Assembly (NCBI GenBank): GCA_963806085.1
Contig: CAWDWR010000003.1
Span: 778,590 to 842,589 of the forward strand
Source of the DNA: an uncultured Acidobacteriota bacterium
Lineage (GTDB): Bacteria > Acidobacteriota > Vicinamibacteria > Vicinamibacterales > JAKQTR01
DNA length: 64,000 nucleotides
Direction of reading: 5' to 3'
The notes beneath the pieces are model-generated. The model was not told the DNA's origin and searched no databases. It saw only the letters and a list, made by a program, of their open reading frames with translations. Positions within the stretch are counted from its first letter, which is position 1, and each line of letters starts with the position of its first letter. The position numbers and the translations under genes are program-made. Below are positions 1-63,596 of the stretch, piece by piece.

Positions 1-989
1 CACAGCCCCGAGCCGCTCGAGCAATTCCCACGCGGGACGTTCGCTGATGACCAGGTACTCGTCCTCAGGGAAGTGGTGGCGCTGGTACGCGGAGTTGACG
101 ACGCTCACCGCCAGCCTGCTGCAGATGAGCGGGAACAGCGCTTCGATCTCGGATTCTCCCAGCGCGAACACGGAGGAGTAGCCCTCGACAACGCGCACGG
201 CCGCGGCGAGAGGATCCGGCTTGTTCAGCATCGCGTACGCGCAGGCGACCGCCGCCTCGTTGGCGATCCACGTGCGCAGCATGTCGCCGAAGTCCACGAC
301 CGACGTCACGCGCCGCGCATACGGGTCGTCGCCGAGGACGAGCACGTTGTGGTCGTTGGCGTCGTTGTAGATCACGCCGGAGCGGAGCCCGGGCGCGAGG
401 CGCGTCAATTCGCCCTCCGCCCAGGTGAACAGGCGTTCGACCAGCTGGCGCCTGGCGCCGTCGGCCGACGAACCCGAGGTACTCGCGGATCCAGCCGGCG
501 CGGCGGGGATCCCACTTGAGGTCGCGGTCTGCCGCAGGATGGTCGAAGTCCGCCAGCGCCACGTCCATCGTACCCAGGAGCGATCCCAGGCTCCGGAGAA
601 GTTCCGGCGTATGCGGGCGGACGCCCGCCAGCACCGTGCCCGGCACCCACGTCAGCAGCCGCACCAGATGCGGCCGTGCCCTGCGCGTCGGTGATCGACG
701 TCATGGCGGCGCCGTCGATCGCGTGCTGCACGCGAGGAAGGTCCAGTTCCGGCGCCCTGGCGGCCAGGTGCGCGAGCGCCGCGTTCTGGAGATCGATGAC
801 CCGCGGGTCTTCCTCCGCGTTCGAGATCTTCAGGACGTAGCGCCGGTTGCGGGCATCCTGCAGCACGACGTTCTGGTCGCGCTCGCTCGGCAGCGCCCGG
901 CCGCCCCGGTCGACTCCGTAGTATCGGCGGCCGAGGGCCTGGAGCTCGTCGAGCGAGAACGCCGGCCGGACGAATTTGACGGTTGGCAT
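1..989 (-). pseudogene. APH-family phosphotransferase (homoserine kinase type II / hydroxylysine kinase-like); 3' end runs off the window; frame broken twice
   Basis: N-terminus in ORF 405..989 (MPTVKFVRPAFSLDELQ...VLKISNAEED). It continues in the ORF 65..664 frame (LLTWVPGTVLAGVRPHTPELL...DFDHPAADRDLKWD). A third frame follows (rc of ~1..400: VIYNDANDHNVLV...VVDFGDM, kinase catalytic motifs). Confidence 0.6.
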
Positions 990-1105
990 GACGCGCGGCT
1001 CGAGTACGTGCGCTCAGGATACCGCAAAGCCCGCTGCATGACGCCAGGCGCCTGCGCGGCCGCGCCGTTCGCGGTGTCTAACGCTCCAGACGCCGGGGAC
1101 GATCC

Positions 1106-1876
1106 ATGCTCGAAGCCTGCAGCCTCGTGAAGCGGTTCGGTGGCACGGTGGCCGTCGACGACGTGAGTTTCTCGGTCGGGCCCTCACACGTGCTGGGCTA
1201 TCTCGGGCCCAACGGTTCGGGCAAGACGACGACGGTGAACATGCTGGTTGGGCTGCTCCAGCCCACGCGCGGGCATGTGCGCTTCGACGGGCGCGACATC
1301 TGGGACGACATCGTCGGTTACCGTCGCAGGGTGGGCTACGTGCCGGAGGAGCCGAATCTCTACCCCTACCTCACGGGCCGGGAGTACCTCGAACTAGTCG
1401 GACGCCTGCGCAGCATCCCGGACCGCCGGCTCGGCCCCAGGATCAGCCGCCTGCTCACGCTGTTCTCACTCGAGCCGGACAGCCATTCACCGCTGTCCTC
1501 CTATTCGAAGGGCATGCGCCAGAAGGTCCTTATCAGCGCCGCGCTGCTCCACGATCCCGACCTGCTGGTGTTCGACGAACCGATGTCGGGGCTGGACGCC
1601 GCCTCGGCGGTGATGTTCCGGCACCTGATCAAGGCGCTCGCGCGCGCCGGCAAGACGGTGCTCTACAGTTCCCACGAACTGGAGGCCGTCGAGCGCGTCG
1701 CCGACCGCGTGGTCGTGCTGCACCAGGGGCGCATGGCCGCCCACGATTCGGTGGAGCGGCTGCGCGAACTGATGAAGCTCGATTCCCTCGAAGAGATCTT
1801 CACGGAACTGGTGTTCACCGAGGATCCCGAGGCCGTGGCGAACCGCATCGTCGACGCCGTCGTCTCGCGGGGCTGA
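1106..1876 (+). CDS. ABC transporter ATP-binding protein
   Basis: Intact 256-aa ORF with Walker A GPNGSGKTT, signature SYSKGMRQK and Walker B LLVFDEP. It ends 4 nt before the downstream membrane gene. Confidence 0.9.
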   Translation: MLEACSLVKRFGGTVAVDDVSFSVGPSHVLGYLGPNGSGKTTTVNMLVGLLQPTRGHVRFDGRDIWDDIVGYRRRVGYVPEEPNLYPYLTGREYLELVGRLRSIPDRRLGPRISRLLTLFSLEPDSHSPLSSYSKGMRQKVLISAALLHDPDLLVFDEPMSGLDAASAVMFRHLIKALARAGKTVLYSSHELEAVERVADRVVVLHQGRMAAHDSVERLRELMKLDSLEEIFTELVFTEDPEAVANRIVDAVVSRG

Positions 1877-1879
1877 GCG

Positions 1880-3591
1880 ATGACGAGCGGGCCGCGTCCG
1901 TTCAACGTGCTCTTCCGCCATTTCCTTGGCGGGTTCCTCGACAACGACCTGATCGCGCCCGCCGGCGACCTGCACGGGCCCCTGTCGAAGGCCGTCGCGA
2001 TCCTGGGGCTCATCGGCCTCTTGTACCCGTTCAAGCTGCTCGGCACCTACGGCCGGCCCTTCTGGGACTACGCGGCGCTCGACGCGGTGTCGTGGAACGA
2101 CAAGAGCACCTTCGTGCTGATCTCGCTCGTCGTGACCGGGCTGCTGACCGTGCTCGAATGGGAGGCGCTCCGGATGGATCGCCGGGACTGCCGCACGCTC
2201 GGCCCGTTGCCGCTTCGCGCCGGCACGATTCTCGGGGCGAAGCTCGCCGCGCTCGGGACGTTCCTGCTGGTGCTGTCGGTGCCGCTGACGCTGCTCGGGG
2301 GACTGACGTTTCCCATCATCATGCACGCCGGCTGGCGGTCGGCCGTGCGGCTGGCGGCGGCGACGATGGCCGGGCACGTCGTGGCGACGCTGGCGGCGGC
2401 GTGGTTCGCGTTCTTCACGCTGCTCGCCGTGCAGAGCCTGTTGCAGTGCATGCCCGGCCGGCGCGCTCGCCCGCCGGCTCGCCGACGCCGTCCAGCTCGG
2501 CGCCACCCTTGGCCTCGTCGTGGCGCTGCTGATGCTGCCGTTCATCGCCTCGAGCACCGCGGCGCTGAAACAGGCGTCGGCCGGCACCGGGGGCTTCGCG
2601 CCGCAGATGTGGTTCGTGGGGATGTACCAGGCGATCGCGGGCCAGGGCGATGCCGAGTGGGCCCGGCTCGCGGCGCGCGGGTGGCTGGCGCTGCTGGTGT
2701 CGGCGCTCGCGGGTGCCGGCGCCAGCCTGCTGGCCTATCGACGGGCGCTCGGAAGCACGCTCGAGAGCGCCGAGACGACAGGAGGCGGGAGGTCGCCCAT
2801 CGTCCGCCTCACCGGCCCCGTGTCGCGCCTGATCGCGAGAGGCTCCGTGGAGCGCGGCTTCTTCTCGTTCTCCGTGCTGACCATCCTGCGCAGTCCCTGG
2901 CATCGGCTCGTGATGGTGGTATGCCTCGGCGTGGCGCTCGCGCTCGCGATGGTGACGCTCGATGCCGCCACGATGGCGCGCGATGGCGTGGGACGAGTGC
3001 CGATGCGGGTGTCGCATGCCCTGGCGATGCAGTGGGTCGTGCTCGCCATCGTGCTGGCCGGTATCCGGGTGGCGGCAGCCGTGCCGGCCGAGCTGCGCGC
3101 GAGCTGGGTGCTGCGCATGCTCGAGACCGACCAGCCACGGCGCTGGATGGCCGGATTCCGCAGCGCGGTTTTCGCCGGCGTCGTCGCGCCGGTCGTGGCG
3201 CTGATGGCCGTCGCCATGGCCTGGCAGTACGGCTGGCACACGATCTGGACGCTGTCGCTGGCCGCGTGCCTCTTCGCCGGCGCCGCGCTTCGAGGCGCTG
3301 TTCCTCGGGTTCGGGCGCGTGCCCTTCGCGTGCCCGGCCGAGCAGGAGATGGGAGACGCCAGGATTCGCGGGCCCCTGATGGTCGCCCTCTTCACGATCC
3401 TCGTCGTCCCGGCGGCCGAGCTGGTCACGCTGGCGCTGCGGACGAGTGTTGGAACGGCTGTCCTGCTGGCGTCGGGCCTGGCCGCCATCGCGCTGCTGCG
3501 GTGGCGCGGGCGTGTCGCGATGGCGGGCGCCGGCCGGCTGTCGTTCGACCCCGAGTACCGGGGCACACAGGCGCTGGACATCCAGCCGTAA
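1880..3591 (+). pseudogene. polytopic membrane protein, probable permease partner of the upstream ABC ATPase; frame broken twice
   Basis: Hydrophobic helices read on through ORF 1880..3379 (to ~2460), ORF 2520..3785 (to ~3290) and ORF 3319..3591. Frames (start mod 3) are 2,0,1. Confidence 0.5.
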
Positions 3592-3636
3592 GCCCGCCGG
3601 CCAGGCCGCCGGCGCGTCAACCGCGCCACGGCCGGC

Positions 3637-4804
3637 TCACGCGGCTGGCGGGTCCGCCTTCGTCCGGACGATGCGATCGAGCTCGCGCATCATCGCGTCG
3701 ATCTCGTCCATCGTGTTGTAGAAGTGCGGTGACAGGCGGATGCCGACGCCGGGCCGGTAGTCCACGACGAAATCGCGGGCGTTGAGCGTCTTCGCCACGC
3801 GCGCGGCCTCGGGCACGTCGACCGCCACGGTGCCCGCGAGACGCCCGGGATCCCGCGAGGCGACCGAACGGTACCCGAGCTCGTCCACGAGACCGAGCAG
3901 CCGGCGCGTCATGGCCTGTGATGCCGCGCGGATCCGATCGACGCCGACGCTGCCCGATGATCTCGAGGCCCGGCAGCGCGGCGTAGTACGCGGGAATCGC
4001 CGGCGTGCCGTTCATCATGGCCATACCGTCGTCGCGCACGTCGGTGGCGTCGATGTCGAACGCGAAGGGATCGGCGCGCGACAGCCATCCGGTGAACCGC
4101 GGCCGCGACGTCGCCTTGACCCACGGCGCCGTGTAGAGAAACGCGTTGCCCGGACCGCCGCACAGCCACTTCAGGCAGCCGCCGACGAAGAAGTCCACGC
4201 CGAGCGCCGTCACATCGACGGGAATGATCCCGGCCGACTGGTAGCCGTCGAGGATCACCGGGACACCCATCGCGTGCGCCTTCTCGATCACGGGCGCGGG
4301 ATCCACGATGTAAGAGCTTCGGAAGAGCACGTGGGAGAGGCAGACCGCCGCGGTCCGATCGTCGATGGCGTCGGCGATGCGTTCGCCGGGGACGGAGAGA
4401 TCGTCGAGCGCTGGCACGATGTGGAGGTCGAAGCCGATGTCGCGCTGCGCCTTGTAGAGGTAGACGGCCGACGGGAAGTCCATCGCCGTGCAGACGATCG
4501 TGCGCTTCGTGCCCTCGGGCCTGATGCAGGACAGCGCCACCGCCTCGGCCGTCGTCACGTTCTCGTGCATGCTGACGGAGCCGGCCGGCGCGCCGATGAT
4601 GGCCTCGATGCGGGCCCCCAGTTCGCCCGCCAGTTCCCACCAGCGCTCCTCCCAGGCGCGCACGCCGCGCGTCGCCCAGGTGTCGGCGTACTCGGCGAGC
4701 GAACGCGCCGCCGCGCGGGGCATCGCCCCGAGCGAATTGCTGATCATGTAGACCGAGCGGGAGAGGATGGGGAACTCGTCGCGCCAGCGCGCCAGGTCGG
4801 TCAT
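3637..4804 (-). pseudogene. kynureninase-like class V PLP-dependent enzyme; one frame break
   Basis: ORF 3617..4804 (MTDLARWRDEFPILSRSVYMISNSLGAMP...GGCLKWLCGGPGNAFLY) hands to ORF 3637..3912 (MTRRLLGLVDELGY...RLSPHFYNTMDEID). The junction near 3953 fits one extra base in a G run on the coding strand. Confidence 0.6.
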
Positions 4805-4900
4805 GGTGACGGCATTCTACCCCGCTCGGCCGGGCCGCCGGGGGGCGCGGATCCGGGCCTGTTGTAGACTGGCGTCGTTGTCCCGATCGAGGTCACACAG

Positions 4901-5544
4901 ATGTTCACGCGCGTCGCCCCGATATGCCTTGCGGTGCTGGTCGTCGCCGGGCCCGCCGCCGCCCAGCAGAAGCCGTACAGCGTGACGCTCGGCGGCGCCC
5001 TCGTCGGCCCGCTGTCCGACAGCGCCGACCGTTTCGCCACCGGGCTCGGGTTCACGGCAGGCGCGACCTGGCACATCAACGAGCAGATCGGGCTGACCGG
5101 CGACTACGTGTGGTCGACGCTCGGCATGCAGAACGACTGGGACGGGCTCGTGGCGTCCCGGCCGGTCGACGTCACGCCGCGCATCCAGTTCGGCACGGTT
5201 GACGTCAGGTTCGAGGCGCCACCGGCGAAGGCGCGGCTCTACGTGCTTGCCGGCGTCGGCTTCTATCACCGCAGCGTCGCGATGGCGACCACCGGGCCGG
5301 GGGACGTCACGGTGTGCGACCCGTGGTGGTTCGTGTGCACGCCGGGCCCGTGCCGGTGGGAAGCGTGAACCGCACGCACTCGAGCAATGACGTCGGCATC
5401 AACGTCGGGGCCGGGATCGAAGCGGGCCGGTTCTTCGCCGAGATCAGGTACCACTACACGTGGGGACCGTCGTTCAATACCCCGGACGGCCCACAGGCCG
5501 CGACGGGGAAGTTCCTGCCGTTGACGTTCGGGTTCGTGTTCTAG
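4901..5544 (+). pseudogene. outer-membrane beta-barrel (porin/OmpW-like) protein; frame break near 5345
   Basis: Signal peptide MFTRVAPICLAVLVVAGPAAAQQ, alternating beta-strand pattern, and C-terminal ...LPLTFGFVF. ORF 4901..5368 hands to ORF 5314..5544. Confidence 0.55.
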
Positions 5545-5646
5545 ATCCAGCCGCGGTTCACCGACCCTCACGCTGCCGACGAAGGTGCGGCGCCGGCAGG
5601 AGGAGCGGGGAATCAGGCCGAAGATGCTGGCGGCGGACTTCTCTCG

Positions 5647-5675
5647 CACGGGCGACGCGGTGGGCGTCGCCCGTG
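5647..5675. terminator. hairpin between convergent genes (possible bidirectional terminator)
   Basis: Perfect 12-bp stem CACGGGCGACGC / GCGTCGCCCGTG with a 5-nt loop. No U tract. Confidence 0.4.
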
Positions 5676-5704
5676 CGCTCAACAGACAGACAGGCTGGCA
5701 GCCG

Positions 5705-6264
5705 CTACTTCTTGACGACGTCGAAGTTCAGCAGCAGCGCCTCGGTCCAGGTGAGGTCGACTTTGTCGCCGACCTTGACCTGGTCCAGCACCTTCTTGTC
5801 CTCGATGCGGGCGCTGTACGTCCACTTGTTCGGGCCGCTGAGCGTGATCGACGGCACCTTGGGATCGAGGGCGGTGATCGTCGCGGTAATCGTCCGCTGC
5901 TTGGCCGCGGTGCGGGCCGGCTTGTCGAGCCGCCTTTGGCGTGACTCCCTCACCGGAGGTGTCCACGTCCTTCTCGCCCGGCGGCTTCTTCCGGATCACG
6001 AGATTCTCGTAGTAGCGCGCCGTCAGGACGTCGCCGACCTTGATCATCGAGAAGCGCTTCACGGTCTGCGGGGACGACAATGTCCACGTAGTTGCCCTTC
6101 GGTCCCTTGATCGTCAGGGTGCGCGTGGACACGTTGATGGCCTCGACGGTGGCCGAGATGGTCTGGGTCTCTCCCGTCAGGGTCTTCGACTGGGCGACGG
6201 CGATGCCGGCGATGCCCAGCACCGCGACCGCGATCACGACAGTGGTGATGACAATACGCTTCAT
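5705..6264 (-). pseudogene. secreted hypothetical protein with two similar beta-rich halves; frame broken twice
   Basis: Signal peptide MKRIVITTVVIAVAVLGIAGIAVAQ in ORF 5950..6285. It continues in ORF 5679..6080 (VKRFSMIKVGDVLTARYYENLVIRK) and ORF 5705..5953 (...KVGDKVDLTWTEALLLNFDVVKK). Confidence 0.4.
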
Positions 6265-6338
6265 ATGTGCTCCTTGCCTCCTCACATCATCCTAGCATCC
6301 CGCAGCCGTGCGGGGTCCGCCTGGCCTCGGATCATCCC

Positions 6339-8568
6339 CTACCAATCGAACAGCCGGCCCACGGCGATGTAGGTGCTCCACCGCCCGTCGAACCCGACCG
6401 TGCCGCCGAACAGCACGGGCCCGATCAGCGTGTCGGCCATGAGGCCCACACCCGCCTGCGTGCGGAACGTCGCCTTCTTCCAGTCGTCGAACGCATCCCC
6501 GTTCTCCAGCCAGCCGCCGGCGAAGATCGAGCCGCCGAGGAAGTCGGGCAGACGGCCGAGCTGGTGCAGGTACCCGAACGTGCCGAGGTAGTAATGGTCG
6601 CCCTTCAACTCGCCCAGGTCGTAGGCGCCCAGGCGGAACGGCCGCCCGAGGTGGAACTGATTCAGCACGAGCGGCTGTTTGTCGAACGAGGTGCCGAACC
6701 CCCAGGTGGTGAAGAACCGGTTGTCCGAGCCCACGGTGTGGAAGCTCGTTCCGACGGTGCTGAACTGGGCGAGGTGGACGCTGCTCCGGGCGGTCGGGAG
6801 CGGCGGGATCGATGACGGGGCCGTCGAAGATGTACAACATGCGCGCCGTCACGGCCATGCCCCGAGACGGGATCGCGGGGCTGTCCTGCCCGTTGTACCG
6901 CCACGGCTAGCTCCGCCGCCGTCTCCTTGCCCGGACAACGACGGGAGGCCGGGATCGCCGACCTCGACGTTCGCATCCAGCCGGCCGATGTAGGCGCCGA
7001 GCCGGATGTCGCTGAACGCACCCAGGTTCACGCCGACGTTGAGGCCGGCCTTCAGGATGCTCTGGTCGTAGCGGGCCACCACCGAGTCGTCTTCGATGAC
7101 GTTGTACGTCAGCTTCGCGGCTCCGCCGTACGGCGCGAAGAAGAGCGGCGTCTTCCCGAGCGGCTGATACCACTCCATGCCGAGCGACGGGTTCGAGCCC
7201 ACCGTGCCGTCCACGCGCAGTTCGGAGCCCGGCCAGCGGCACGTCGAATGTCAGGTAGCGGGCCGAGAGCGACACCCCGAAACTGTCGCTGGTGGTGTTC
7301 TCGAGCCTGAACGCCGAGCATCAGGAACGGGGGCGCGTTGGGCTTCTGACGGCCCCGCACGAGCAGTCCCACCTCGCCGGCCTCGTTCGGCACGAGGCGC
7401 CAGCCCACCGTCTCGTACCGGTCGAGGCCCGAGAGTTCCGTGAGGTCGAGTTCGAGCGACGGGATGTCGAGCGGGCGGCCGACATGCGCGGCCAGGGTGG
7501 CGGCCATCCGGTGCTCGTCCGACTGAATCGATCGCCCTCGAACTTCACGAAGGCCGGGGACCGGGATGGTGGCCCGCCTGGCCCCGTTCCGCCGCGTCCA
7601 GCCACTTCTGGTACTCGGCTTCGCTGACGGCGTACTTCAGCAACTGGTCCTTGATCGCCTCGGCGGCCTTGTAGCCTTCCTCGATGAATTCCTTGCTGCG
7701 CCGCCAGTCGAGCGACTTGTAGCCCTTCTCCACGAGCGGCACGTTGAGCACGACGTCCGCCGCCGCCAGCCCTTTCTTGGTGCTCGCCCTCATCATCGCG
7801 CTCAGCGTGCCGCCCGCGAGCCCGAACAGCGTCTGGTTGACCTCCTTGGGATCGGAGAGATCGCCGACGTTGATGGCGATGACGACGTCGGCTCCCATCC
7901 CGCGCGCGACGTCGGCCGGCACGTTGTTCATGGCGCCGCCGTCGACGAGGATCTTCCCGTCCATCTCGACCGGCGGGAAGATCAGCGGGCAGCGACATGG
8001 TTGCGCGCATCGCCGAGGCGAGCGACCCGCGGTCGAGCACGACCTGGGTGGCCGAGATCAGATCGACGGCGACCGCGCGAAACGGCGTCGGCAGCTCGTC
8101 GAACGTCGCGATGCCGTAGTACGGCGCCGTGACGCGCGCGAGCAGCAGGTCCACCTGCTCGCCGGTGTTGAGCGAGGTCGGCGGCGAAAACCCCTTGCGG
8201 AGGCCGAACTCGAGCCGCGACGGATACGCGCGCGCGTCCGTCTTGCGGCGGATGTTCTTGAACGCGAAGTTCGACGACCCGAACAGCTCGTCCCAGTTCA
8301 TCGTCGCGAGCATCTGGTCGAGCTCCGCCGACGACATGCCCGTCGCATAGCAGCCGCCGATGAGGCCGCCCATGCTGGTGCCCGCCGCGACGTCGATCGG
8401 GATGCGGTGCTCCTCGAACCAGCGGATCACGCCCACGTGCGCGATGCCCTTGGCGCTGCCTCCGCCGAAGGCGACGCCTATCTTCTGGCGTTCCTGGGCG
8501 GATGCGGTGATCGCGGACGTGAGGATGAACAGGGCCGCAAGCGTCAGGCCGGCCGCGCGTCGTGCCAT
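6339..8568 (-). pseudogene. patatin-like phospholipase fused to an Omp85/surface-antigen beta-barrel (PlpD / type Vd-like); about seven frame breaks
   Basis: GGGSAKG and GTSMGG patatin motifs in ORF 7321..8646, and the DGG motif in ORF 7545..7964. Barrel pieces lie in ORFs 7109..7507, 6907..7275, 6849..7214, 6662..7021, 6292..6858 and 6339..6734 (ends ...YIAVGRLFDW). Confidence 0.7.
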
Positions 8569-8701
8569 CAAGAGTACCTCGCAGAGATCATGACACAGGC
8601 CCGTCCGGGCTGAAAGCTGCGAGGCACGCCGGAGGCCGCCTCCCATCTGGCCGTCGGCCGGCTCCTCAGGCTAAGATGACAAGTTCAACAGGAGTCGAAT
8701 C

Positions 8702-9444
8702 GTGAAGAGGATCCTCTTGCTCTGCGCACTCGTCTGTCTGCCGCTGCCGGCCTTGGCCCAGGCCCCGGCGGCTCCGGCCGCTCCTCCGCCGCCTCCCAGG
8801 CACGAAGGCACCGCGGAATTCGCGTTTGTCGGCACCACCGGGAATGCCTCGACGCAGACGATCGGCCTGAACGGCGAACTCATCGTCCGGCCCGAGCAGT
8901 GGGTCATCACGAACAAGGCGAGTTTCATCCGCAACGAGTCGGAATCGGAACTGACGGCCCAGTCGTTCGGCTACCTGTTCCGCGCCGCGCGCACGCTCTC
9001 GCCCCGCCTGTCGGCGTTCGGCGAGTACGCGTACTTCCGCGACACGTTCGCGGGCGTCGCCCACAGGAACTCGCTCGTCGGCGGCCTGTCCTACAAACTG
9101 GTCAACGCACCCAGGCACCTCGTCTTCGCCGATGCCGGCCTCGGGTACATGAACGAGCAGCGGCTCGAAGGCGACGACGTGTCGAGCGCCACCTGGTCGC
9201 TGGGCGCCGGCTACAAGTGGAAGATCTCGGACACGGCCGAGTTCACCGAGGACGTCCGCATGACGGGCATCTTCGCTGATGCGGCAGCGACTGGCGCGTC
9301 CTGCAGATGGCGGCCGTCACGGCCCGCCTCACGACGCTCTTCTCGCTGAAGGTCTCGAACACGATCCGCTACGCCCACGCGCCGGTGCCCGGGTTCAAGG
9401 ACACCGACACCAACACGTCGGTGGCGCTGGTCGCCAAGTTCTGA
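8702..9444 (+). pseudogene. DUF481 (YdiY-like) outer-membrane protein; frame break near 9285
   Basis: Signal peptide MKRILLLCALVCLPLPALAQA with EFAFVGTTGNASTQTIGLNGE. The tail is in another frame (DWRVLQMAAVTARLTTLFSLKVSNTIRY...TSVALVAKF, stop 9442..9444). Confidence 0.6.
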
Positions 9445-9469
9445 CACCGGCTGCGGCGGGACCGATCAC

Positions 9470-10238: not shown

Positions 10239-10390
10239 CCGGGACGAGGCCGCGCACGCCGCGCGGGATGGGCCTGGTCCGCCGGGCGCCGCGCGGGGCG
10301 ACGGACATTTGGCGGCGGCTGTACCCGCATGCTCAGGATCTTCACGCACTTTTCCGCCGGATTCTTTCCCGATATTGCTGGAGTTCCAAC

Positions 10391-12281: not shown

Positions 12282-12323
12282 TCGGGGCGGGTCCGCTCGC
12301 GGACCCGTCGCCAGAGACGAGGC

Positions 12324-13349
<1,026 letters not shown>

Positions 13350-13357
13350 ACGGGAAC

Positions 13358-52002: not shown

Positions 52003-52006
52003 CTTC

Positions 52007-53329: not shown

Positions 53330-53362
53330 GACCGGCCTCCAGGGGGGAACTGTACTACGGCA

Positions 53363-53472
53363 GGCGCCAGGGACTCGGCGCTAGGCGCTAGTCGGTCTTG
53401 GCGTCTCGCCGGCAGGCCAGCCACGCGGCGGGAGCCGCGTCTCACTAGCCCCTAGCGCCAAGTCCCTAGCCC
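53363..53472. repeat. second copy of the ~110-bp heptamer hairpin element (GGCGCCA GGGACTC GGCGCTA GGCGCTA, a 54-nt loop, CTAGCCC CTAGCGC CAAGTCC CTAGCCC)
   Basis: Direct reading. Same orientation as the copy at 49743. The right arm runs straight into the stop codon (CTA, 53473-53475) of the response-regulator gene. Confidence 0.9.
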
Positions 53473-54189
53473 CTAATTCGCGTGCTGCAGGTACTGTGCG
53501 TCGACGAACTCTTCGACGGCGGACTGATCGGCGGCGTCGATGCGCTCGAACTGCATCCCCATGCCCACGCGCCGGTCGCTCCAGGCCACACGGGCGTCGG
53601 CGTCCACGTCTCGTTTCGAGTTGGGCAGGCGGAAGCGCACCCTGGCGCGGGTCGCGGAGTCGAGCGGGCTCATCGTGCGGATGGCCAGCCCGCCGCGGCT
53701 GAGGTTCAGCGTCACGGCGGCGGCAATGGTGTTGCCGAACCGATAGGCCACCGGGATGCCGAGCGACACGCGCGGGCTGGTCCGGCGGTTGAAATTGTCG
53801 GGGAACAGGTGTGGCGCCAGCGACGGCAGGATCTGCTGCGACGCGCTGTACTCGTTCACGTACCCGGCGATCCCGAGCGTGGCCAGGTCGCGGACTTCGG
53901 ACGCCCCGCTGATCGTGCCGCTGAACACCAGGATCGGCAGGCGCCCGCCGTCGAGCTTGCGAATGGACCTCACGAGGTCGGCCCCGCCGGCATGGGGCAG
54001 GCGGAGGTCCACCATGACCAGGTCGATCTCCGGCAGGTCCGCCCTCACCCGGGCCAGCAGTTCGGCTGCGCTCTTGACGGTGAACGCCCGGTGCCCGGCC
54101 TGCTCGATGGCGGCCCTGAACCGCTCGCGCACGAACGGGGTATCATCGGCGATGAGGACGGTCTTGTGCACGGCGCCGGCCATGGTCAT
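53473..54189 (-). CDS. response regulator receiver domain fused to a PilZ (c-di-GMP binding) domain
   Basis: VLIADD...DLVMVDLRLP receiver. PilZ motifs RRTSPR (RxxxR) and NLSRGG (D/NxSxxG). Intact. The ATG at 54189 is preferred over the TTG at 54198. Confidence 0.75.
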   Translation of the reverse strand: MTMAGAVHKTVLIADDTPFVRERFRAAIEQAGHRAFTVKSAAELLARVRADLPEIDLVMVDLRLPHAGGADLVRSIRKLDGGRLPILVFSGTISGASEVRDLATLGIAGYVNEYSASQQILPSLAPHLFPDNFNRRTSPRVSLGIPVAYRFGNTIAAAVTLNLSRGGLAIRTMSPLDSATRARVRFRLPNSKRDVDADARVAWSDRRVGMGMQFERIDAADQSAVEEFVDAQYLQHAN

Positions 54190-54238
54190 TCTGTGCAAGT
54201 GTATCGGATTGGGCCCGCCGGAACGTTAGGCCGTTGCG

Positions 54239-54268
54239 TTGCAGGCCGGAACGGCTTGTCGCTATAAT
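54239..54268 (+). promoter_or_regulatory. sigma70-like promoter candidate for the LysW-like/larE operon
   Basis: TTGCAG, 18 nt, then TATAAT (54263-54268). This would give a ~110-nt GC-rich leader before the ATG at 54384. Confidence 0.35.
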
Positions 54269-54383
54269 CCAGGCTCCCGTCGCGACAACCGTCGGCGTGT
54301 CAGCAGTTACGCGGGCGCCGCCGGGGTAGGCCCCGGCCCTGGGAGCACTGGCCGGTCCGCGTGCGACCCGTTGTGGAGGCGGT

Positions 54384-54602
54384 ATGGCAATCTGCCCTGA
54401 ATGCGAGTTCGAGATTGACGTCGACGAGTACGACGTGGACCGGGGCGACACCCTCGAATGCGACAACTGCGGGGTGACCCTCGAAATTATCGGCCTCAAC
54501 CCCATCGAGTTCGAGGTCGCGTCCGACGACGACGAGGAAGAAGACGAGGAGGACGACGACCTGGATGAAGAGGAGGCGGAGGTTGATGAGGACGACGAGT
54601 GA
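54384..54602 (+). CDS. LysW-like zinc-ribbon protein with a 27-residue poly-acidic C-terminal tail
   Basis: MAICPECEFEIDVDEYDVDRGDTLECDNCGVTLEIIGLNPIEFEV aligns by eye to Thermus LysW (CPECGAEL...CEDCGAELEVVGLDPLRLE). The tail is SDDDEEEDEEDDDLDEEEAEVDEDDE, ends in Glu, and lacks the EDWGE motif. Confidence 0.55.
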   Translation: MAICPECEFEIDVDEYDVDRGDTLECDNCGVTLEIIGLNPIEFEVASDDDEEEDEEDDDLDEEEAEVDEDDE

Positions 54603-55459
54603 CGGCCCCGGACATGCGCACAGCGCCGGCCACTGACGAGGCCCGGCTCCTGGAGAAAGAGGCGCGTCTCCGTCGGGCGCTCGCGGAGATGGGCTCCGTC
54701 GTCGTCGCGTTCAGCGGCGGCACCGACAGCGCGTACCTCGGCTGGGTGGCCACGTCGGTGCTCGGGCGCGCGGCGCACTGCATCACCGCCGACAGCCCCA
54801 GCTATCCCTCCCGGCACCGCGCGATCGCGGAGCGCCTCGCCCGCGACTTCTCCCTTCACCACGAGTTCATCGTCACCGCCGAGATGGAGAACCCCGAGTA
54901 CCGGGCCAACGAGCCGGACCGCTGCTACCACTGCAAGCAGGAGCTCTTCACGGCGCTTCAGGCCATCGCGAACGATCGCGGCGTCGCGGCGGTGCTGGAC
55001 GGCGCGAACGCCGACGACCGGGGTGATTACCGGCCCGGGCGCAAGGCCGCGCGGGAACTGGGCGTGCGCAGCCCGCTCGACGACGCCGATCTGTCGAAGG
55101 CCGAGATCCGCGAGCTCTCGCGCCGCGCCGGGCTGCCGACGTGGGACGAGCCGGCGTCGGCATGCCTGTCGTCGCGCATTCCCTACCATACCGAGGTCAC
55201 GCCGGAGAAACTGGCGATGATCGAGCGCGCCGAGGATGCGCTCATCGCGCTCGGCTTCCGAGTGTGCCGGGTCCGCCATCACGGCGACGTGGCCCGTGTC
55301 GAACTCGGCCCGGACGAAATGGCGCGCGCCCTGGAGCCGGCGACGCGCGAGGCCATCGTCCGCGACCTGAAGGCCGTCGGCTACCGCTACGTCACCCTCG
55401 ACCTGCAGGGTTACAGGATGGGCAGCCTCAATGAAGGCGTCCGCCTGCAACCGGTGTGA
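54599..55459 (+). CDS. larE: LarE-family PP-loop ATP pyrophosphatase / sulfur transferase (TIGR00268-like)
   Basis: Intact. VVAFSGGTDS PP-loop, CYHCK (CxxC) and SACLSSRIPY Cys motif. GTG 54599 overlaps the upstream stop (or ATG 54614). Confidence 0.78.
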   Translation: MTAPDMRTAPATDEARLLEKEARLRRALAEMGSVVVAFSGGTDSAYLGWVATSVLGRAAHCITADSPSYPSRHRAIAERLARDFSLHHEFIVTAEMENPEYRANEPDRCYHCKQELFTALQAIANDRGVAAVLDGANADDRGDYRPGRKAARELGVRSPLDDADLSKAEIRELSRRAGLPTWDEPASACLSSRIPYHTEVTPEKLAMIERAEDALIALGFRVCRVRHHGDVARVELGPDEMARALEPATREAIVRDLKAVGYRYVTLDLQGYRMGSLNEGVRLQPV

Positions 55460-57819
55460 GGCGTGCGGTGAGGGACGTGCTCGCGCCGGTCACGCGTGGG
55501 TCCCGGGCGTGGTGGGTGGCGGCGGCGCTCGCCCTCGTCTTCCTGGCCGGTCATCTGCCGTTTCTCGCTTCCACGCTCGAGGACGTCGACTCGGTGAACT
55601 TCGCGCTCGGCCTGCGCGATTTCGATCCGGGCCTCCATCGTCCGCACCCGCCCGGCTATCCGATTTACATGGCGCTCGGCAAGGCCGCGAACCTGGTCTT
55701 GAGCGAGCCGCACGCGCTCGCGATCTGGGGCGCGCTGTTCGGGGCGCTGTCCGCGTTCGCGCTGCTGCGGATGTTCGCCGCGTTCGACGCGCTCGACGGC
55801 AATCTTGCGGAACCCCCGGCACGGCTGCGCCACCTCCGCGTCGGCGAGTGGCTCGGCCGGCCGGCCGTGGCCACGGCCCTCACGATGTCGGCGCCGCTCT
55901 TCTGGATGACCGCGTCCCGGCCGATGAGCGACACCGCGGGCCTTGCCGTCTCGCTGACGGCGCAGGCCATCCTGCTCACGGCCGTGGTCCGCCAGCGGGC
56001 GGCCGCGGCCGCGGGTGAGTCGCCGTCGTCTTCCGCGGCCGTGCACTCAGGCCGGCTCATCCTGCTGGGTGCGTTCGTGTCGGCCGTGGCCATCGGCTTC
56101 CGGTCGCAGGCCGCGTGGCTCACGGTGCCCGTCCTCGTGCTGGCGATCGCCGACCGCGCCGGGCGCGGCGCGGCCGGCGTGATTGTCGGGAGCCTGTTCT
56201 GGCTGGCGGCCGGCACGCTGCTGTGGTTCGTGCCGCTCGTCATCGCCAGCGGAGGCCCGGGCGCGTACTACGCGGCGTTCAGCGCCCAGGCGGGCGAGGA
56301 CTGGACCGGCGTCGATCTGCTGGTCACGAACATCAGTGCCCGCAGGCTGGCCTTCGCGCTCTTCGAGACGTTCGTCCGTCATTGGGCGAGCGCAGGAGGG
56401 TTCATGGTGCTGCTGGCGGCGGCCGGCGCCGCTGTGCTGCTCTGGAAAGGCCGCCGCGCGCTTCTCGCGATCCTCGTCGCCTTCGTGCCGTACGCGATCT
56501 TCCACCTGCTGTTCCAGGAGACGGTCACGACGCGGTATGCGCTGCCGCTCGTGCCGGCCATGGCATACCTCGCCACGAGAGGGTTGTATGCGCCGCCTCC
56601 AATCGGCGGGCTGACGCTCGCCGCCGCCCTGGCGATCGTGTTCGGAGTGACGACGGCGCCAATCACGGCCACACTATGCACGGGCCGGTGGGCCGGTGAC
56701 CCGCGCGCTGGCCGAGATCAGGGCGGACGCCGAGGCCCGCAAGGGCGCGGTGGTCGGCATGCACCATCCTTTCGCAAGGACCGTCGAGGCGGAGGGCGTC
56801 GAACCCGCGACGGCATTGAAGGCGCCGCCGAAACACGAGTGGCTCGAGGTCGTTAAACGTTGGCAGGCCGGGTCCACGGGACCCGTGTGGTTTCTCGCGG
56901 ACCCGCGGCGCACCGACCTCGCGCTCGTCGATCCGCAGGCGCAGATGACGCGCGGCGAGTACGCCTGGCCGTTCTCCAGCCAGGTGTATCTGGGCGGCAT
57001 CCGGCCGGATGGCCTGCGGTGGGTCGTCATCGAGGAGCCGGGCTGGTTCGCGGGAGAGGGATGGCACCTGACGCCCGAGACCGCGGGGGTGGCGCGGGCA
57101 GACGGCGCCGGCCTTGGCAAGGGACCGATACGCGCCTGGCTGGGGTCGCGCGATACCGCGGCGGCGATGATGATTGGAGGCCGCCATCTCGGAAGCGGAT
57201 CCGGCCCTGACGTCCGCGTCGCCGTGCGCATCGACGGGCGGGAGATCGAAGCCTGGTCGGTCGCGCCTTCGACGCCAGCGTTCCTGCGGTTCATCGCGCT
57301 GCCGGCCGGCGCGCTGGCTAGCTCCGCGCGCTGGTGCGCGCTCGAGATCGTCGGCGACGGCCGCTGACGGCGCGGCCACCGACATCGTCGCCATCGATCA
57401 GTTCGACCTGCAGGCCCCCGAGACGCCGATGCTTCGGCTTCGCGGAAGGGTGGCAGGAACCCGAGTACGCGCCGCTCCAGGGTCTCTCCTGGCGTTGGGC
57501 GAGCGGGAGGGCGGTGCTGCGGACCGCGCCGACGGGCCGCGACCTCGAGCTGCAGATCGTTGGCGAGTCGCCGCGGCGTTACTTCGATCGGCCCTCGCGG
57601 GTGACCGCCGCGGCCGGTGGTGCCCAACTGTGGAGCGTCGAAGCCGGCAGCGACTTCGCGTGGTCCTTCCGCGTGCCGGCAGCGGCGCTGGCGGCTTCCG
57701 GCGGCGCGATCACGATCGAGACGGACCAGGTCTTCAGGCCGGCCGACCGCGGCCAGGGCGCCGACAAGCGCGCGCTCGGCCTCCGGATCTACGCGGTGAA
57801 ACTCAAGCCGGCTTCCTAG
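55456..57819 (+). pseudogene. GT-C fold membrane glycosyltransferase-like protein (DUF2723/PMT_2-like) with a soluble C-terminal domain; three frame breaks
   Basis: GTGA overlap with larE. LEDVDSVNFALG...HPPGYPIYMALGK, then ~10 TM helices (ORF 55456..56856). C-terminal parts lie in ORFs 56696..57367, 57174 and 57334..57819. Confidence 0.55.
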
Positions 57820-58552
57820 CCAGGCAGAGGAGCGAACTTCCGAAGGGCATGGGCACGGCTCGCACCAGGCCCGCCTCGACGGCCAGCAGCGCGCTGAGTG
57901 CGGCATTGACCGGGCGCGGAGGCACCGTGATCTCGCCTTCAGCCTCGCTCTCCGGCGCGAGCCCTGCGATCCGCTGCACGCCGCGCACGCCCAGCATGAG
58001 CGGGAAGAGCGCGGCGTTCGTGTACGTCATCCGCTCGACGCCGAACCCGGCGGCCTCGAGGCGTGCGCGCAGGCTGGCCCGGCTGTAGCGCCGCAGTTCC
58101 GCCGAGAGCACCGAGTGGTTGCCGCGCAGGATGTCCATCGCGGCCACGTTGATGATGGCCGCGCCGCCGGGCTTGAGCACGCGCCACATCTCCCGCACGG
58201 CTTCCCGCTCGACCTGGTCGGGCAGGCAGTAGAGCACGTCGAACGATGTGACGATGTCGAAGGCGGCCGAGGGATACGGCACGGCGGCCGCGCTCGCCTG
58301 GGCAACGCGCGCCGCGCCGGAGGCACGGGCAAACTGCAGGCCGGTCCAGGTCAGGTCGAAACCCCAGGCTCTGCCGTACGGCTCGAGCAGCACCCGCAGA
58401 TTCGTGCCCGTGCCGCATCCGCAGTCGAGCAGGCGCAGCCCCGTGCGGCCGGCCGCGGCCCGCGCGAGCATCGGCGAGACGAACCGCCGGAATCCGCGGA
58501 ACCAGAAATGATCACGCTCGGCGCGCGCCGTGGCTTCAAGCAGTCGATCCAC
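57803..58552 (-). CDS. class I SAM-dependent methyltransferase
   Basis: LLDCGCGTGTN motif I, VLKPGGAAII. Intact. The ORF track extends to 58669. GTG 58552 (VDRLLEATARAERDHFWF) leaves a sensible divergent promoter region. Confidence 0.75.
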   Translation of the reverse strand: MDRLLEATARAERDHFWFRGFRRFVSPMLARAAAGRTGLRLLDCGCGTGTNLRVLLEPYGRAWGFDLTWTGLQFARASGAARVAQASAAAVPYPSAAFDIVTSFDVLYCLPDQVEREAVREMWRVLKPGGAAIINVAAMDILRGNHSVLSAELRRYSRASLRARLEAAGFGVERMTYTNAALFPLMLGVRGVQRIAGLAPESEAEGEITVPPRPVNAALSALLAVEAGLVRAVPMPFGSSLLCLARKPA

Positions 58553-58686
58553 GCGCGTATTGTACGACGCCGGCCGATTCCTCTGGCCTCGATCTGCCGG
58601 GCATGCCAGAATGAAGCAGGAAGACTGCCAGCCGGCCGTTTCCTTCGGGACGTTCCCATCAGGCCCCACTCAAGGAGAGTTCGCCA

Positions 58687-59264
58687 ATGATGCGGTCGTC
58701 GAAAGCGCTCATTTCCGTCATCGCCCTCGTCCTGGTGACGCTGTCGGTTGCGTGCTCGAAGAAGCCTCCGGTCACCGCTCCGCTTCCGCCGCCGCCGCCC
58801 CCGCCCACGACGCCGGCCCCGCCGCCTCCGCCTCCTCCTCCGCCGCCGCCTCCGGCGGCCGCGCCGAAGCCGCTGACCGAGGACGAGGTGTTCGCGAAGA
58901 AGACGCTGGCGGAACTGAACGCGGAGAAGCCGCTCGAGGACGTGTATCTTCGACTACGACAAGGCGGACCTCAAGGCGGACGCCCGCTCGTCACTGGCGA
59001 AGGACGCGGAGTGGCTGAAGCGCTGGCCGTCGACGAAGGTCATCGTTGAAGGGCACTGCGACTCGCGCGGCACGAACGAGTACAACCTGGCGCTCGGCGA
59101 AAAGCGCGCGGCGGCGGTGCGGGACTACCTGGCGGGCCTCGGCATCGCGGCCGATCGCGTGCAGGTCGTGACCAAGGGCGAAGAGTCGCCATTCTGCCTC
59201 GAGGAAGCCGAGAGCCTGCTTCGCGCAGAACCGGAGAGGCCACTTCATCCTCTCCGCGAAGTAG
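58687..59264 (+). pseudogene. pal: peptidoglycan-associated lipoprotein (OmpA-family C-terminal domain); frame broken twice
   Basis: Lipobox LSVAC, a long Pro linker, then (next frame) FDYDKADLK...VIVEGHCDSRGTNEYNLALGEKRA...VTKGEE, and a third-frame tail ...NRRGHFILSAK (stop 59262..59264). Confidence 0.8.
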
Positions 59265-59272
59265 GACATCCG

Positions 59273-60005
59273 CTACGCTCCTGCGTCCGCCGCGATCTTC
59301 TCGGCCGCGGCGCGGGGGTCCGGTGCCGCGATGATGGGCCTTCCCACGACGATGTAGCTCGCGCCGGCCGCCACGGCTTCCGCCGGCGTCATCGTCCGGG
59401 CCTGGTCGTCCCTGGGCCTCGGCGGCAGGCCCGGCGGGTCTGCAGGGCGGATGCCGGGCGTGATGAGCACGAACTCGTCGCCCCGGGCCGCGCGCAGCCG
59501 TCCCACTTCCTGGGGCGAGGCCACGACGCCGTCCGCGCCGGCCTCCTGCGCCAGCCACGCGAGGGCGTCGACCTGGTCGATGACCGGGCGCGGGACGCCG
59601 ATGGAAATCAGCGTGTCCTGGTCGAAGCTGGTGAGCACGGTGATGGCGATGATGAGCGGGGGCGGCACGCCGGCCTTCGCGGCGCCGGCATGCGCCGCTT
59701 CGCGCGCCGCTTTCATCATGGCCACCCCGCCGCTGGCGTGGACGTCGATGACCCAGGCGCCGAGCTTGGCGGCCTCGGCCGCCGCGCTCGCCACCGTGTT
59801 CGGAATGTCGTGGTACTTCAGGTCCAGGAAGACCCGGTGGCCGGCGTCGACCAGGCGCCGGACGATGTCGGGCCCGGCGGCGGTGAACAGTTGGCTGCCG
59901 ACCTTGACGGCGCCCACCGCGCCGCGCAGGGTGTCGGCGAGCGCGAGCGCCTTGTGCCGGGCTGTCGACGTCCAGTGCGACGATGACGGGATTCACTGCT
60001 GCCAT
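59273..60005 (-). pseudogene. pyrF: orotidine 5'-phosphate decarboxylase; one frame break (~59950)
   Basis: MAAVNPVIVALDV in the ORF 59040..60653 frame, then ORF 59273..59917 (VKVGSQLF...VFLDLKYHDIPNT...ITPGIR...IVVGRPI). Confidence 0.82.
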
Positions 60006-60034
60006 CTCCTGACCCTCACCTCGGGCCGCTGGCG

Positions 60035-60955
60035 TCAGCGGCTCATCTGCACCGTGCCCACGAGGTCCGCCGCGCGGGCAATGCCGTGGCGCGTCATGTA
60101 GTCCTCGATCCCCGCCTGGAGCTTGGGCCAGATGAACGGATCGATGAAGCTGGCCGTGCCCACCTGCACGGCCGTGGCGCCGGCGATCATGAACTCGAGC
60201 ACGTCGCGGGCGCTGCCGATGCCGCCCATGCCGATCACGGGGATCCGGACCTGCTGCGCGCATTCGTACACCATGCGCACGGCGATCGGGCGGATCGCCG
60301 GACCGCTCAGGCCGCCCATGCCGTTCGAAATCGCCGGGCGCCGCGTCTCGAGGTCGATGACCATCGCGAGGAACGTGTTCACGAGCGACACGGCGTCGGC
60401 GCCGTTCTCCTCGGCCGCGCGCGCGAACGACGACACGCTGGTCACGTTGGGCGTGAGCTTCGGGATGAGCGGCAGCGTCGTGACCTTGCGGACGGCCGCC
60501 ACCACCTCGCCCGTGCTCGACAGGTTGCAGCCGAACTGGATGCCGCCTTCCTTGATGTTCGGGCACGAGATGTTGAGCTCGATGGCCGCCACGCCCTCGC
60601 AGTCGGACAGGATCCGCGTCACCTCGGCGTACTCGTCGATCGAGCTGCCGCACACGTTCACGATGACGACGGCGCCGAGGCGGCGCAGTTCCGGCATCTT
60701 CTCGCGGACGAAGCGATGCACGCCGATGCCCTGAAGGCCGATGGCGTTGAGCATGCCGGACGGCGTCTCGACGATGCGCGGAGGCGGATGGCCCTCGCGC
60801 TCCTTCAGGAAGAGCCCCTTGACCACCACCGCGCCGAGCGAGGACAGGTCGACGATCTCGGCGTACTCGAGGCCGTAGCCGAAGCAGCCGCTCGCGGACA
60901 TGAGCGGGTTCTTCAGGACGAGCGAGCCGATACGGACGCTGAGATCCACCGTCAC
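60035..60955 (-). CDS. pyrD: dihydroorotate dehydrogenase, class 1B catalytic subunit
   Basis: GTG 60955 overlaps the pyrK stop. LKNPLMSASGCFGYG...ELNISCPN...NTF...GLSGPAIRPIA...IGMGGI. Intact. Confidence 0.9.
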   Translation of the reverse strand: MTVDLSVRIGSLVLKNPLMSASGCFGYGLEYAEIVDLSSLGAVVVKGLFLKEREGHPPPRIVETPSGMLNAIGLQGIGVHRFVREKMPELRRLGAVVIVNVCGSSIDEYAEVTRILSDCEGVAAIELNISCPNIKEGGIQFGCNLSSTGEVVAAVRKVTTLPLIPKLTPNVTSVSSFARAAEENGADAVSLVNTFLAMVIDLETRRPAISNGMGGLSGPAIRPIAVRMVYECAQQVRIPVIGMGGIGSARDVLEFMIAGATAVQVGTASFIDPFIWPKLQAGIEDYMTRHGIARAADLVGTVQMSR

Positions 60956-61782
60956 TCCCAGATCAGGTCGTCGCCGTTGAACACGGGGCCGTTCAGGCAC
61001 GAGCGCACGAAGCGCGGCGCGCCGCCGGCGTCCCGCACGCGCACCACGCAGCTGTAGCACCCGCCCAGGCCGCAGCCCATGATCCGTTCCGTCGAGAGCT
61101 GCGACGGGCAGCCGTGGGTGCGGGCCAGGCCGGCGACCGCCTTCAGCATCGGCTCCGGACCGCAGGCATACAGCGTCACCGGGACGCCAGCCGGACGGGC
61201 GCGAAGCGCCTCGTCGAGCGGCGCCGTCACCCGGCCGTGCGCGCCGAGCGATCCATCTTCAGTCGCCAGATCGAGCCGCACGCCGCGCGACGCGAACCAG
61301 TCCAGATAGAAGAGGTCGGCGCGCGTGCGGCCCCCGTAGAACAGCCGCGTGCGGGCGCCCGTCGCCTGCAGCGCCTCCGTCAGCGTCGCAAACGGCGCCA
61401 GGCCGACGCCGCCCGCCACCATCCACGCCTCGACCGGCGGCGACACGGGAGAGAACGGCTTGCCGAGCGGGCCCAGGACCGAAAGCCGGTCACCCGCGGC
61501 CGCGTCGTACAGCCTCGTGGTGCCCGGGCCAATCCGCTTGCACAGCACCGAGAAGCCGGATGGCGACCCAGCCGCATCACGGAGGATTTCGAAGACGGAG
61601 AACGGCCGGCGCAGAAGCGGGTCGGTGCCCGCCGCTGTGCGGATCATGACGAACTGCCCCGGCAGGCTCGCGGCGGCGATGGCCGGGGCCTCGAACTGCA
61701 GCACGTTGTAGTCTGCGGACAGGAGGGTATTGCGCAGGACCAGGGACGGAACGTCCAACGGCGGCATGGGGAAAGTATACAT
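60952..61782 (-). CDS. pyrK: dihydroorotate dehydrogenase electron-transfer subunit
   Basis: Start at MYTFPMPP (61782). PGQFVMIR, RPFS, ...MGCGLGGCYSCVV 2Fe-2S loop. The ORF-track extension to 61872 is translated heptamer repeat (RIPNPES...). Confidence 0.85.
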   Translation of the reverse strand: MYTFPMPPLDVPSLVLRNTLLSADYNVLQFEAPAIAAASLPGQFVMIRTAAGTDPLLRRPFSVFEILRDAAGSPSGFSVLCKRIGPGTTRLYDAAAGDRLSVLGPLGKPFSPVSPPVEAWMVAGGVGLAPFATLTEALQATGARTRLFYGGRTRADLFYLDWFASRGVRLDLATEDGSLGAHGRVTAPLDEALRARPAGVPVTLYACGPEPMLKAVAGLARTHGCPSQLSTERIMGCGLGGCYSCVVRVRDAGGAPRFVRSCLNGPVFNGDDLIWE

Positions 61783-61783
61783 G

Positions 61784-61818
61784 TTCGGGATTCGGGATTC
61801 GGGATTCGGGATTCGGGG
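61784..61818. repeat. tandem heptamer array, TTCGGGA x4 plus TTCGGGG
   Basis: Direct reading. It begins 1 nt beyond the pyrK start codon and lies between the divergent pyrK and the AlkP-family gene. No complementary arm seen. Confidence 0.9.
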
Positions 61819-61849
61819 ATAGCATTGAGCGCGAGGCGGCGCGGGACGA

Positions 61850-63596
61850 ATGCGATACCTGCGGATGCTCACGAATTCGGTGATCGGGGGGACTGGCGTT
61901 CGCCCTCTATCTCACGATTCTCGTGCTGCAGATCAACCCGGGCTACCCGTTGATGAGCATCCAGGGCCTCGCGGCCACGCTCGTTCTGTCCTACGGCTTT
62001 CACACGGCCACGGTTTTCTACGTGCTGATCGTGCTGCGGCAGTTGCTGGCCACCGAGGTGATTTCGCCGGGCTGGATCAGCTTCAGGTTCCTCGTCTGGC
62101 TCTGTTCGGCCAGTGCCGGGGCGGCGACGCTGCTGACCTGGGTGAACCTCCGCGATCTTGCGCCCTTCATGGATCCCGAGGCCGTCACGCGGATGACCGG
62201 CGGCGCCGTCGTGCTGACGGTCTGCGCGGGCATCATGCTCGCGCTGGCCCTCGGGCACCGGTGGGCCGGGCGCCACAGCTCCAGGCCCGGCGCGGTGGTG
62301 CTGGCCGCGGCCTTGATGGCGTCAATCGCGGGGCCGCTGATGCTCCGGGGCCCGGGTGCGGAGCCGCTGAGGGCGGCCCGGTGGCCGGCCGCGGCGCCCG
62401 GAGGCCGCTGGCCCGGGCGGCGAGTCCCGGGTCGTCATGGTCCTGCTCGAGGGCGCGTCGCTCGATCTGATCGCCCCGGCGGCCGTCGAGGGGCGTTTGC
62501 CGAACTTCGAACGCCTGCTCGAGCGCGGCGCCTCGCTGCACCTGGCCACGATGCGGCCCACGCAGCCCGCGCCGGTCTGGGCGTCGGCGGCCACCGGCAA
62601 GCTGCCGCTACAAGAACGGCATCCGGTCATCCGCCACCTATACGCCGCTGGCGAGCGCCGACGCCATCGAGGTGCTGCCCGACTACTGTTATTCCCATGC
62701 GCTGGTGGAGTACGGGTTCCTCCGCGAGCAGGTGCACGAGAGCCGCGACCTGACGGCGCGTGCCGCTCTGGAGCGTGCTCGGAGCGCAGGGCGTGCCGGT
62801 GGGCGTCGTGAACTGGTCGGTGACCCAGCCGGCGCGCGACGTGCGGGGCTACCTCGTGTCGGACCAGTTCGAGCGCCGGTACGCGACGGTGGTCGACGTC
62901 GAGAACATCGGGGTGATTTCGCCCAGGACGCCACGGCGGTGGCCGTGGCGGCCGCCGGCGAAGCCCGCCGCGCCGAACCGGTGCCGCCGCCCAGGGCGTC
63001 GGATGATGCCGGCCAGTCCGTCGCGCATCCCTGCGCCGCCGACCGTGTCCACGAACAGATTGCCGCCGAGCTCGATCGGCGCATGCCCAGCCGCTTCCAG
63101 GCCGTCCGCTACGAATGCCTGGACGCGGCCGGCCACTACTTCCTGCGGTACGCCGGTCCCGAGGGCGTTCGGCGACGTGTCAGACGCGGAACTGCAGCGG
63201 TACGGCGGTGTCCTGATCGCGCACTATGCGGCAGCCGACCAGATGCTCGGGCGGGTGATGGCCGGCCTGCGGCCGGGCGACCTGCTGCTGGTGGTCTCCG
63301 GGTTCGGCATGGAGCCGATGAGCATCGGCAAGCGGCTGCTCGAACGCACGGTCGGCAACCCCGAGCCGAGCGGCACCCACGAACCCGCGCCCGACGGGTT
63401 CCTCTTCGCGTATCGGCACCGACGTCAGGCCCGGGCCGATTGCCGCGCGGGTCGGTCGTGGACATCGTGCCGACGATCCTCTACTTCTTCGGCCTGCCGG
63501 TCGGCCGGGACATGGACGGCTTCGCCCGCACGGACATCTTCGCGCCGGCCTTCAGCGAGGGCCGGCCCATCACGTACATTCCGACGCTACGAGTAG
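61850..63596 (+). pseudogene. membrane-anchored alkaline phosphatase-superfamily protein (type I phosphodiesterase/nucleotide pyrophosphatase-like); about ten frame breaks
   Basis: N-terminal TM region (ORFs 61850, 61923). VLLEGASLD...LPNFERLLERG...TQPAPVWASAATG (ORF 62437). Later pieces lie in ORFs 62672 and 62760 (...VVSGFGMEP..., ...VDIVPTILYFFGLPVGRDMDG). The probable end is ...IPTYE at TAG 63594..63596. Confidence 0.6.

Follow-up and report, generated by a model that had tools for sequence, protein, structure and literature searches.

The stretch of DNA considered here, hereafter the window, comprises 64,000 nucleotides (nt) from the genome of an uncultured soil bacterium of the Vicinamibacterales (Acidobacteriota) (G000:C3:778590-842589), a metagenome-assembled genome (MAG) of 5.04 Mb in three contigs with a guanine-plus-cytosine (GC) content of 69%. 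Nearly the whole window is syntenic, at 77-85% nucleotide identity, with three genomes of the same genus: G004 (2 contigs, 100% complete), G002 (20 contigs, 87% complete), and G006 (20 contigs, 61% complete). Along it lie genes such as tilS, ftsH, folP, and glmM, a tRNA-Met gene, and an IS481-family insertion sequence (IS). The subject of this account is the breakage of its reading frames by single-base insertions arranged in patches, which affects 26 of the 54 genes longer than 100 codons, including the four just named.

Frame breaks were located with a purpose-written protein-to-DNA aligner that carries explicit frameshift states, its queries being the coding segments of the three relatives as delimited by a codon hidden Markov model (HMM); gene identities were assigned on the intact orthologues of the relatives. 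The alignment against G004, which covers 48 kb of the window, yielded 70 '+1', three '+2', and five '-1' breaks, that against G002 (53 kb) 78, four, and six to seven, and that against G006 (52 kb) 73-74, three, and seven, respectively. When the three relatives are merged, 93 frame-break clusters emerge, namely, 80 '+1', four '+2', and nine '-1', with support from at least two relatives for 76 of the 80 '+1' clusters and five of the nine '-1' clusters. Insertion clusters, with the double '+1' cases included, number 84 against nine '-1' clusters, or roughly 10 to 1 at the protein level. An earlier note on this DNA had counted 90-100 events by hand, taken about 29 of about 60 genes to be broken, and asserted a bias toward +1 insertions; all three statements are borne out by frameshift-aware alignment. 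The stepwise frame progressions that it traced reproduce for tilS (three steps), ftsH (three), glmM (eight), and the patatin gene (seven), and many steps are likewise seen in a gene of the alkaline-phosphatase (AlkP) superfamily, though the count there is eight instead of about ten.

The same asymmetry is found at the DNA level, where indels were scored as specific to the window if at least two relatives, or all three, agreed. Under the first rule there are 105 window-specific 1-nt insertions versus 32 one-base deletions, and under the second 71 versus five. True one-base deletions lie at five sites, 5339, 26815, 30411, 42321, and 62927. The suggestion that the few apparent '-1' junctions are each two neighboring insertions proves correct for the breaks near 9286 and at 30517/30539, and incorrect for those at 5339 and 30411. 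Window-only insertions were called outside the aligned genes as well, in the intervening DNA at 10334, 20982, and 21031.

The events are far from evenly distributed along the window. Their mean spacing is about 600 nt, and event-free gaps of 6-8 kb far exceed the Poisson expectation. The intact stretches reported previously are recovered as event-free intervals at 9972-14160, 14728-21325, 32224-40529, 42321-45867, 48103-56675, and 59953-61887. The densest patch of the window (21325-32224, plus strand) holds 43 event clusters in 10.9 kb and runs through a series of plus-strand genes: tilS (21078-22484; three events), ftsH (22487-24400; three), folP (24544-25390; five), cdaA (25433-26249; one), a YbbR-domain gene (26252-27154; five, one of them the deletion at 26815), glmM (27157-28502; eight), an LsrF-type aldolase (28536-29432; six), rpe (29454-30142; three), and a bifunctional aldolase/SDR gene (30289-32346; eight, one of them the deletion at 30411). 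Within this series, cdaA, the YbbR-domain (CdaR-like) gene, and glmM stand consecutively (25433-28502), an order kept in all three relatives and known from the cyclic di-AMP operons of Firmicutes.

Upstream, a first error-dense patch (462-9972) contains about 15 frame breaks, including seven '+1' events in a patatin-like phospholipase gene (6348-8541, minus strand) and one in a gene for a kynureninase-like, pyridoxal phosphate-dependent enzyme (3676-4813, minus strand). The same patch contains the true single-base deletion at 5339, and at 9286 it carries an insertion of 2 nt. The segment at 1300-3600 is missing from the syntenic regions in the three relatives; its two '+1' events, at 2459 and 3290, were called by the HMM only. 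A mostly clean stretch follows (9973-21324), with genes that include a ruvB-like gene (12324-13346) and tRNA-Met (20902-20978), and with only two in-gene insertions, at 14160 (in fabH) and 14728. Downstream of the densest patch, 8.3 kb (32225-40528) are devoid of window-specific frame breaks. A third error-dense patch (40529-42321, plus strand) carries seven events, including the true deletion at 42321, and involves queC (40701-41367, plus strand) and a gene for an AlaX-type editing protein (41424-42617, plus strand). The fourth (45867-48103, minus strand), with 9-10 insertions, holds a DUF4340 gene and involves genes for a GldG-like protein (46242-47825, minus strand) and a GldF-like permease (47828-48432, minus strand). 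Beyond a clean stretch of 8.6 kb (48104-56674) lies a sparse patch of six insertions (56675-59953), associated with a TMEM260-like glycosyltransferase gene (55456-57807) and pyrF (59282-59993). The fifth error-dense patch (61887-63431, plus strand), which according to the HMM runs on past the end of the window, affects a phosphodiesterase gene of the alkaline-phosphatase superfamily (61850-63586, plus strand) with seven '+1' events and the true deletion at 62927.

The right edge of the densest patch is sharp and is marked by the IS481-family element, an error-free plus-strand insertion sequence (32495-33861) with a transposase open reading frame at 32569-33729 (plus strand) and 19-nt terminal inverted repeats at 32495-32513 and 33843-33861. 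The genome contains six copies of this element, three of them 100% identical, and the copies elsewhere are free of errors even amid dense flanks. In the window, the element is flanked by tandem arrays of a heptamer, (GGCTACT)n (32426-32490 and 33890-33950), with an inverted array, (CAGTAGT)n, nearby at 32378-32411. All six copies align along with their flanking heptamer arrays, and perfect 57-59-nt stretches of such arrays occur at many other sites in this genome and in the same-genus genomes G002 and G003; the arrays may be a preferred target of the element or a part of it. The single ribosomal RNA (rRNA) operon of the genome (G000:C3:589098-595094) is likewise event-free, and itself lies within a clean stretch. 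Its 23S gene is 95-98% identical to those of the genus relatives, and indels relative to them amount to only 1-3 nt within 23S and 7-10 nt in the 1.2 kb upstream.

The immediate sequence context of the inserted bases is equally informative. In the DNA-level alignments, 74 of the 105 localized inserted bases differ from both of their neighbors, and only eight fall in runs of three or more identical bases. Since such runs hold about 11% of the bases of the window (a sum of run-length counts), the homopolymer share of the insertions is no more than chance, and the earlier impression that the extra base often sits in a short homopolymer run is not upheld. Clear context-free examples are found at 10334, 23675, 27098, 27810, 28056, 28653, 28993, and 29396, and insertions between conserved flanks include GCT[C]AGG, GGC[A]TCG, GAC[G]TGC, and CAG[C]AAC, where the inserted base is bracketed. 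Homopolymer-length miscalls of the Nanopore, 454, or Ion Torrent type were considered and rejected, the indels not being concentrated in runs.

The extent of the phenomenon across the genome was assessed with a 7-state, 3-periodic Markov HMM trained on this genome, with insertion and deletion transitions, a filter that discards true gene boundaries, and settings tuned against controls. Its calibration relied on simulated indels placed in the clean stretches of the same genome, which gave a sensitivity of about 0.55; simulated pure insertions still led to false '-1' calls at a level of about 7%, since two insertions close together mimic a deletion. The detector reported 3,048 events (2,596 '+1' and 452 '-1'), a density of 0.6 per kb, with all three contigs affected; given its sensitivity, the true number is probably near 5,000. 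As in the window, these events are strongly clustered. Their counts in 20-kb bins have a variance-to-mean ratio of about 10, and 119 gaps longer than 10 kb are without events, where a Poisson process would leave about seven. Altogether 238 patches, with a median length of 3.6 kb (interquartile range 1.8-6.2 kb), hold 91% of the events at 2.4 detected per kb while covering 23% of the genome, and the error rate inside them is about 0.4% per base after correction for sensitivity. Gene orientation is immaterial (0.687 and 0.683 events per kb of coding sequence on the plus and minus strands). Base composition is not: event density follows GC genome-wide (Spearman 0.38) and is 4.6 times as high in the top GC quintile as in the bottom one, whereas the sensitivity of the HMM climbs only 1.3-fold across the same range.

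Related sequences provide the controls. The HMM, which called 56 '+1' and 11 '-1' events in the window, called only three '+1' and one '-1' in the homologous 66 kb of G004, and six '+1' and two '-1' in the homologous region of G002; the 100% complete G004 is without insertion patches of this kind. G006 behaves differently. Its homologous 64 kb (L017-L020), with 42 '+1' and five '-1' events, share the '+1' excess of the window, but the blocks affected are not the same ones; an example lies opposite positions 16045-17952 of the window. Among 27 related contigs from short-read metagenomes (215 kb, 64-73% GC) there were three events, or 0.014 per kb, which makes these contigs some 40 times cleaner than this genome, and some of them reach across the counterpart of the dense region, most of which is covered by L112 and by L119.

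In sum, this is an ordinary housekeeping region in an organism whose genes are intact, and the breaks arise in the building of the sequence, not in the cell. The deposited consensus carries spurious extra bases, and a few missing ones, in read-length-sized patches that together span roughly a quarter of the assembly; outside them it is essentially error-free. As judged from the sequence, their cause is most probably (at a probability of roughly 0.93) uncorrected, insertion-biased consensus error from long reads in a patchily polished or hybrid assembly. The preference of the earlier note for insertion-biased consensus error over biology is supported by the extent of the errors, their patchiness, the clean controls, and the lack of any sign of decay or recoding. 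With about ten insertions for every deletion and almost no dependence on sequence context, the error profile fits long-read noise dominated by insertions, as in PacBio continuous long reads (CLR), whose raw errors comprise about 8% insertions and 3% deletions (10.1101/2021.08.23.457338). Noise of this kind would have survived into the consensus, and correction would have reached only part of the assembly, leaving a mosaic of clean and dirty stretches. The correcting agent could have been accurate short reads, used as backbone or as polisher, or simply sufficient read depth. GC-richer stretches would have been corrected less often, so that raw-consensus insertions remain there, and multi-copy or highly conserved stretches, such as the IS copies and the rRNA operon, would always have been corrected. 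A precedent is a soil metagenome with Vicinamibacterales contigs, sequenced by Nanopore and polished with Illumina reads and Pilon, in which 70% of proteins were truncated after polishing and the share of correct open reading frames followed coverage (PMC8692599).

Several points weigh against this account. The absence of the extra bases from the DNA is deduced from the assembled sequence, and the hybrid or patchily polished origin of the blocks is reasoned from their pattern. A nearly homopolymer-free, insertion-only profile is unlike the usual Nanopore consensus, and Nanopore data, if such they were, would need an explanation of their own. The metagenome scan yielded no independent assembly of the same species, its best contigs reaching 84-86% nucleotide identity. 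Finally, the GC contrast is small in absolute terms (70.2% in patches versus 68.8% elsewhere), and within the window alone the GC trend is not significant (rho 0.21, p = 0.09).

The errors, though still an artefact, might instead have been added after assembly. Reads from co-occurring relatives, whether strains or species, could have been used for polishing, the model behind the consensus or the polishing could have been faulty, or differently processed pieces could have been merged. Sharply bounded patches, one of them ending at the IS at 32.5 kb, would suit piecewise processing, and a context-free, insertion-only profile with no excess of substitutions is unusual for a simple low-depth consensus. 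Polishing with related strains, however, should bring substitutions too, and none are in excess, while G006, another MAG of the genus, bears this signature as well, which points to a shared, platform-level cause; we regard this origin as very unlikely. Deliberate corruption of the sequence, which the earlier note had raised, is also unlikely, as the CheckM marker-gene completeness of this three-contig, 5.04-Mb MAG, 74.2%, already reflects the damage. If the bases were instead real, they could reflect a very recent mass pseudogenization of the population by insertion-biased mutation. The insertions are, after all, truly in the deposited sequence, and a handful of true deletions accompany them. 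Yet the events, some 5,000 in 23% of the genome with the remainder untouched, strike the essential single-copy genes ftsH, tilS, glmM, and folP 3-8 times each, and their density follows GC independently of gene function and strand. The absence of in-frame nonsense decay claimed at the outset is confirmed: across some 17,000 aligned codons there are zero to one in-frame stops. Broken and intact genes are essentially alike in their amino-acid identity to the G002 orthologues (0.839 and 0.858), and where a codon is invariant among the three relatives, the window departs from it at 2.5% of such codons in dense blocks versus 3.1% in clean blocks. Selection is thus not relaxed, nor are substitution errors in excess. 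The DNA alignments also contain larger indels, some of which may be the window's own. With related short-read contigs intact as well, mass pseudogenization is very improbable.

A further possibility is that the cell decodes the breaks, whether by programmed +1 ribosomal frameshifting, by slippage during transcription, or by RNA editing; that the shifts run uniformly in one direction would, at first sight, agree with one such mechanism. The properties of the sites speak strongly against it. Programmed +1 frameshifting uses a conserved shift site, usually with a stop or a rare codon there in the old frame. At 148 shift sites of this genome, the next old-frame stop never falls within 6 nt and lies at a median distance of 268 nt, and inspection of the flanks, with no formal motif test, revealed neither an obvious common motif nor a slippery run. 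A single gene may contain up to eight sites, as little as 13 nt apart, and insertions were called between genes as well. The sites of the window are not shared with the same-genus genomes, G004 having none. Decoding in the cell therefore deserves almost no credence, and scarcely any can be given to a population in which the extra bases are real and thousands of context-free +1 insertions are tolerated or decoded, for example through insertion-biased hypermutation localized to kilobase-sized patches or through some correction step at the RNA level. Ordinary pseudogene decay and programmed recoding are, for practical purposes, excluded.

Comparison with known systems places the window among the indel consensus errors of long-read assemblies and MAGs, a gene-fragmenting problem that IDEEL-type length checks and frameshift correctors such as proovframe (10.1101/2021.08.23.457338) are meant to deal with and that is on record for soil Vicinamibacterales contigs (PMC8692599). 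As there, single-base indels break conserved genes, marker completeness is low despite few contigs, error density is set by local correction, and the short-read assemblies of relatives are intact. Two features set it apart. The usual Nanopore pattern is one of homopolymer deletions, whereas insertions here exceed deletions roughly tenfold and show no link to homopolymers, so that the raw PacBio CLR profile offers the better fit; and long-read errors that are evenly spread contrast with the confinement seen here to patches of about 3.6 kb over a quarter of the genome.

Pseudogenization in the course of reductive evolution, as in Mycobacterium leprae and recent endosymbionts, also leaves many genes with frame disruptions. 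In true decay, stops and deletions occur alongside larger indels and increased amino-acid change, and essential genes are spared. In the window, by contrast, stops are nearly absent, amino-acid change is not raised, and essential genes are hit repeatedly. Similarly, programmed +1 frameshifting of the prfB type or in Euplotes moves the reading frame by +1, and in Euplotes stop-dependent +1 sites are frequent. The sites of the window, unlike these, display no motif, are not followed by stops, extend to the spaces between genes, and are not conserved.

The frame breaks are no biological feature of this bacterium; they are a warning about data quality and not a record of gene decay. The genome is the representative of its species, and over about a quarter of it, and for about half of the genes in the window, gene calls will be truncated, fused, or missing. 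Pseudogene counts, pangenome analyses, marker-based completeness, and "novel ORF" findings that rely on this assembly will be distorted, and other findings on this genome call for frameshift-aware tools. To curators, the map of patches and a signature that is insertion-only and context-free indicate that a single round of polishing with accurate reads would repair the assembly.

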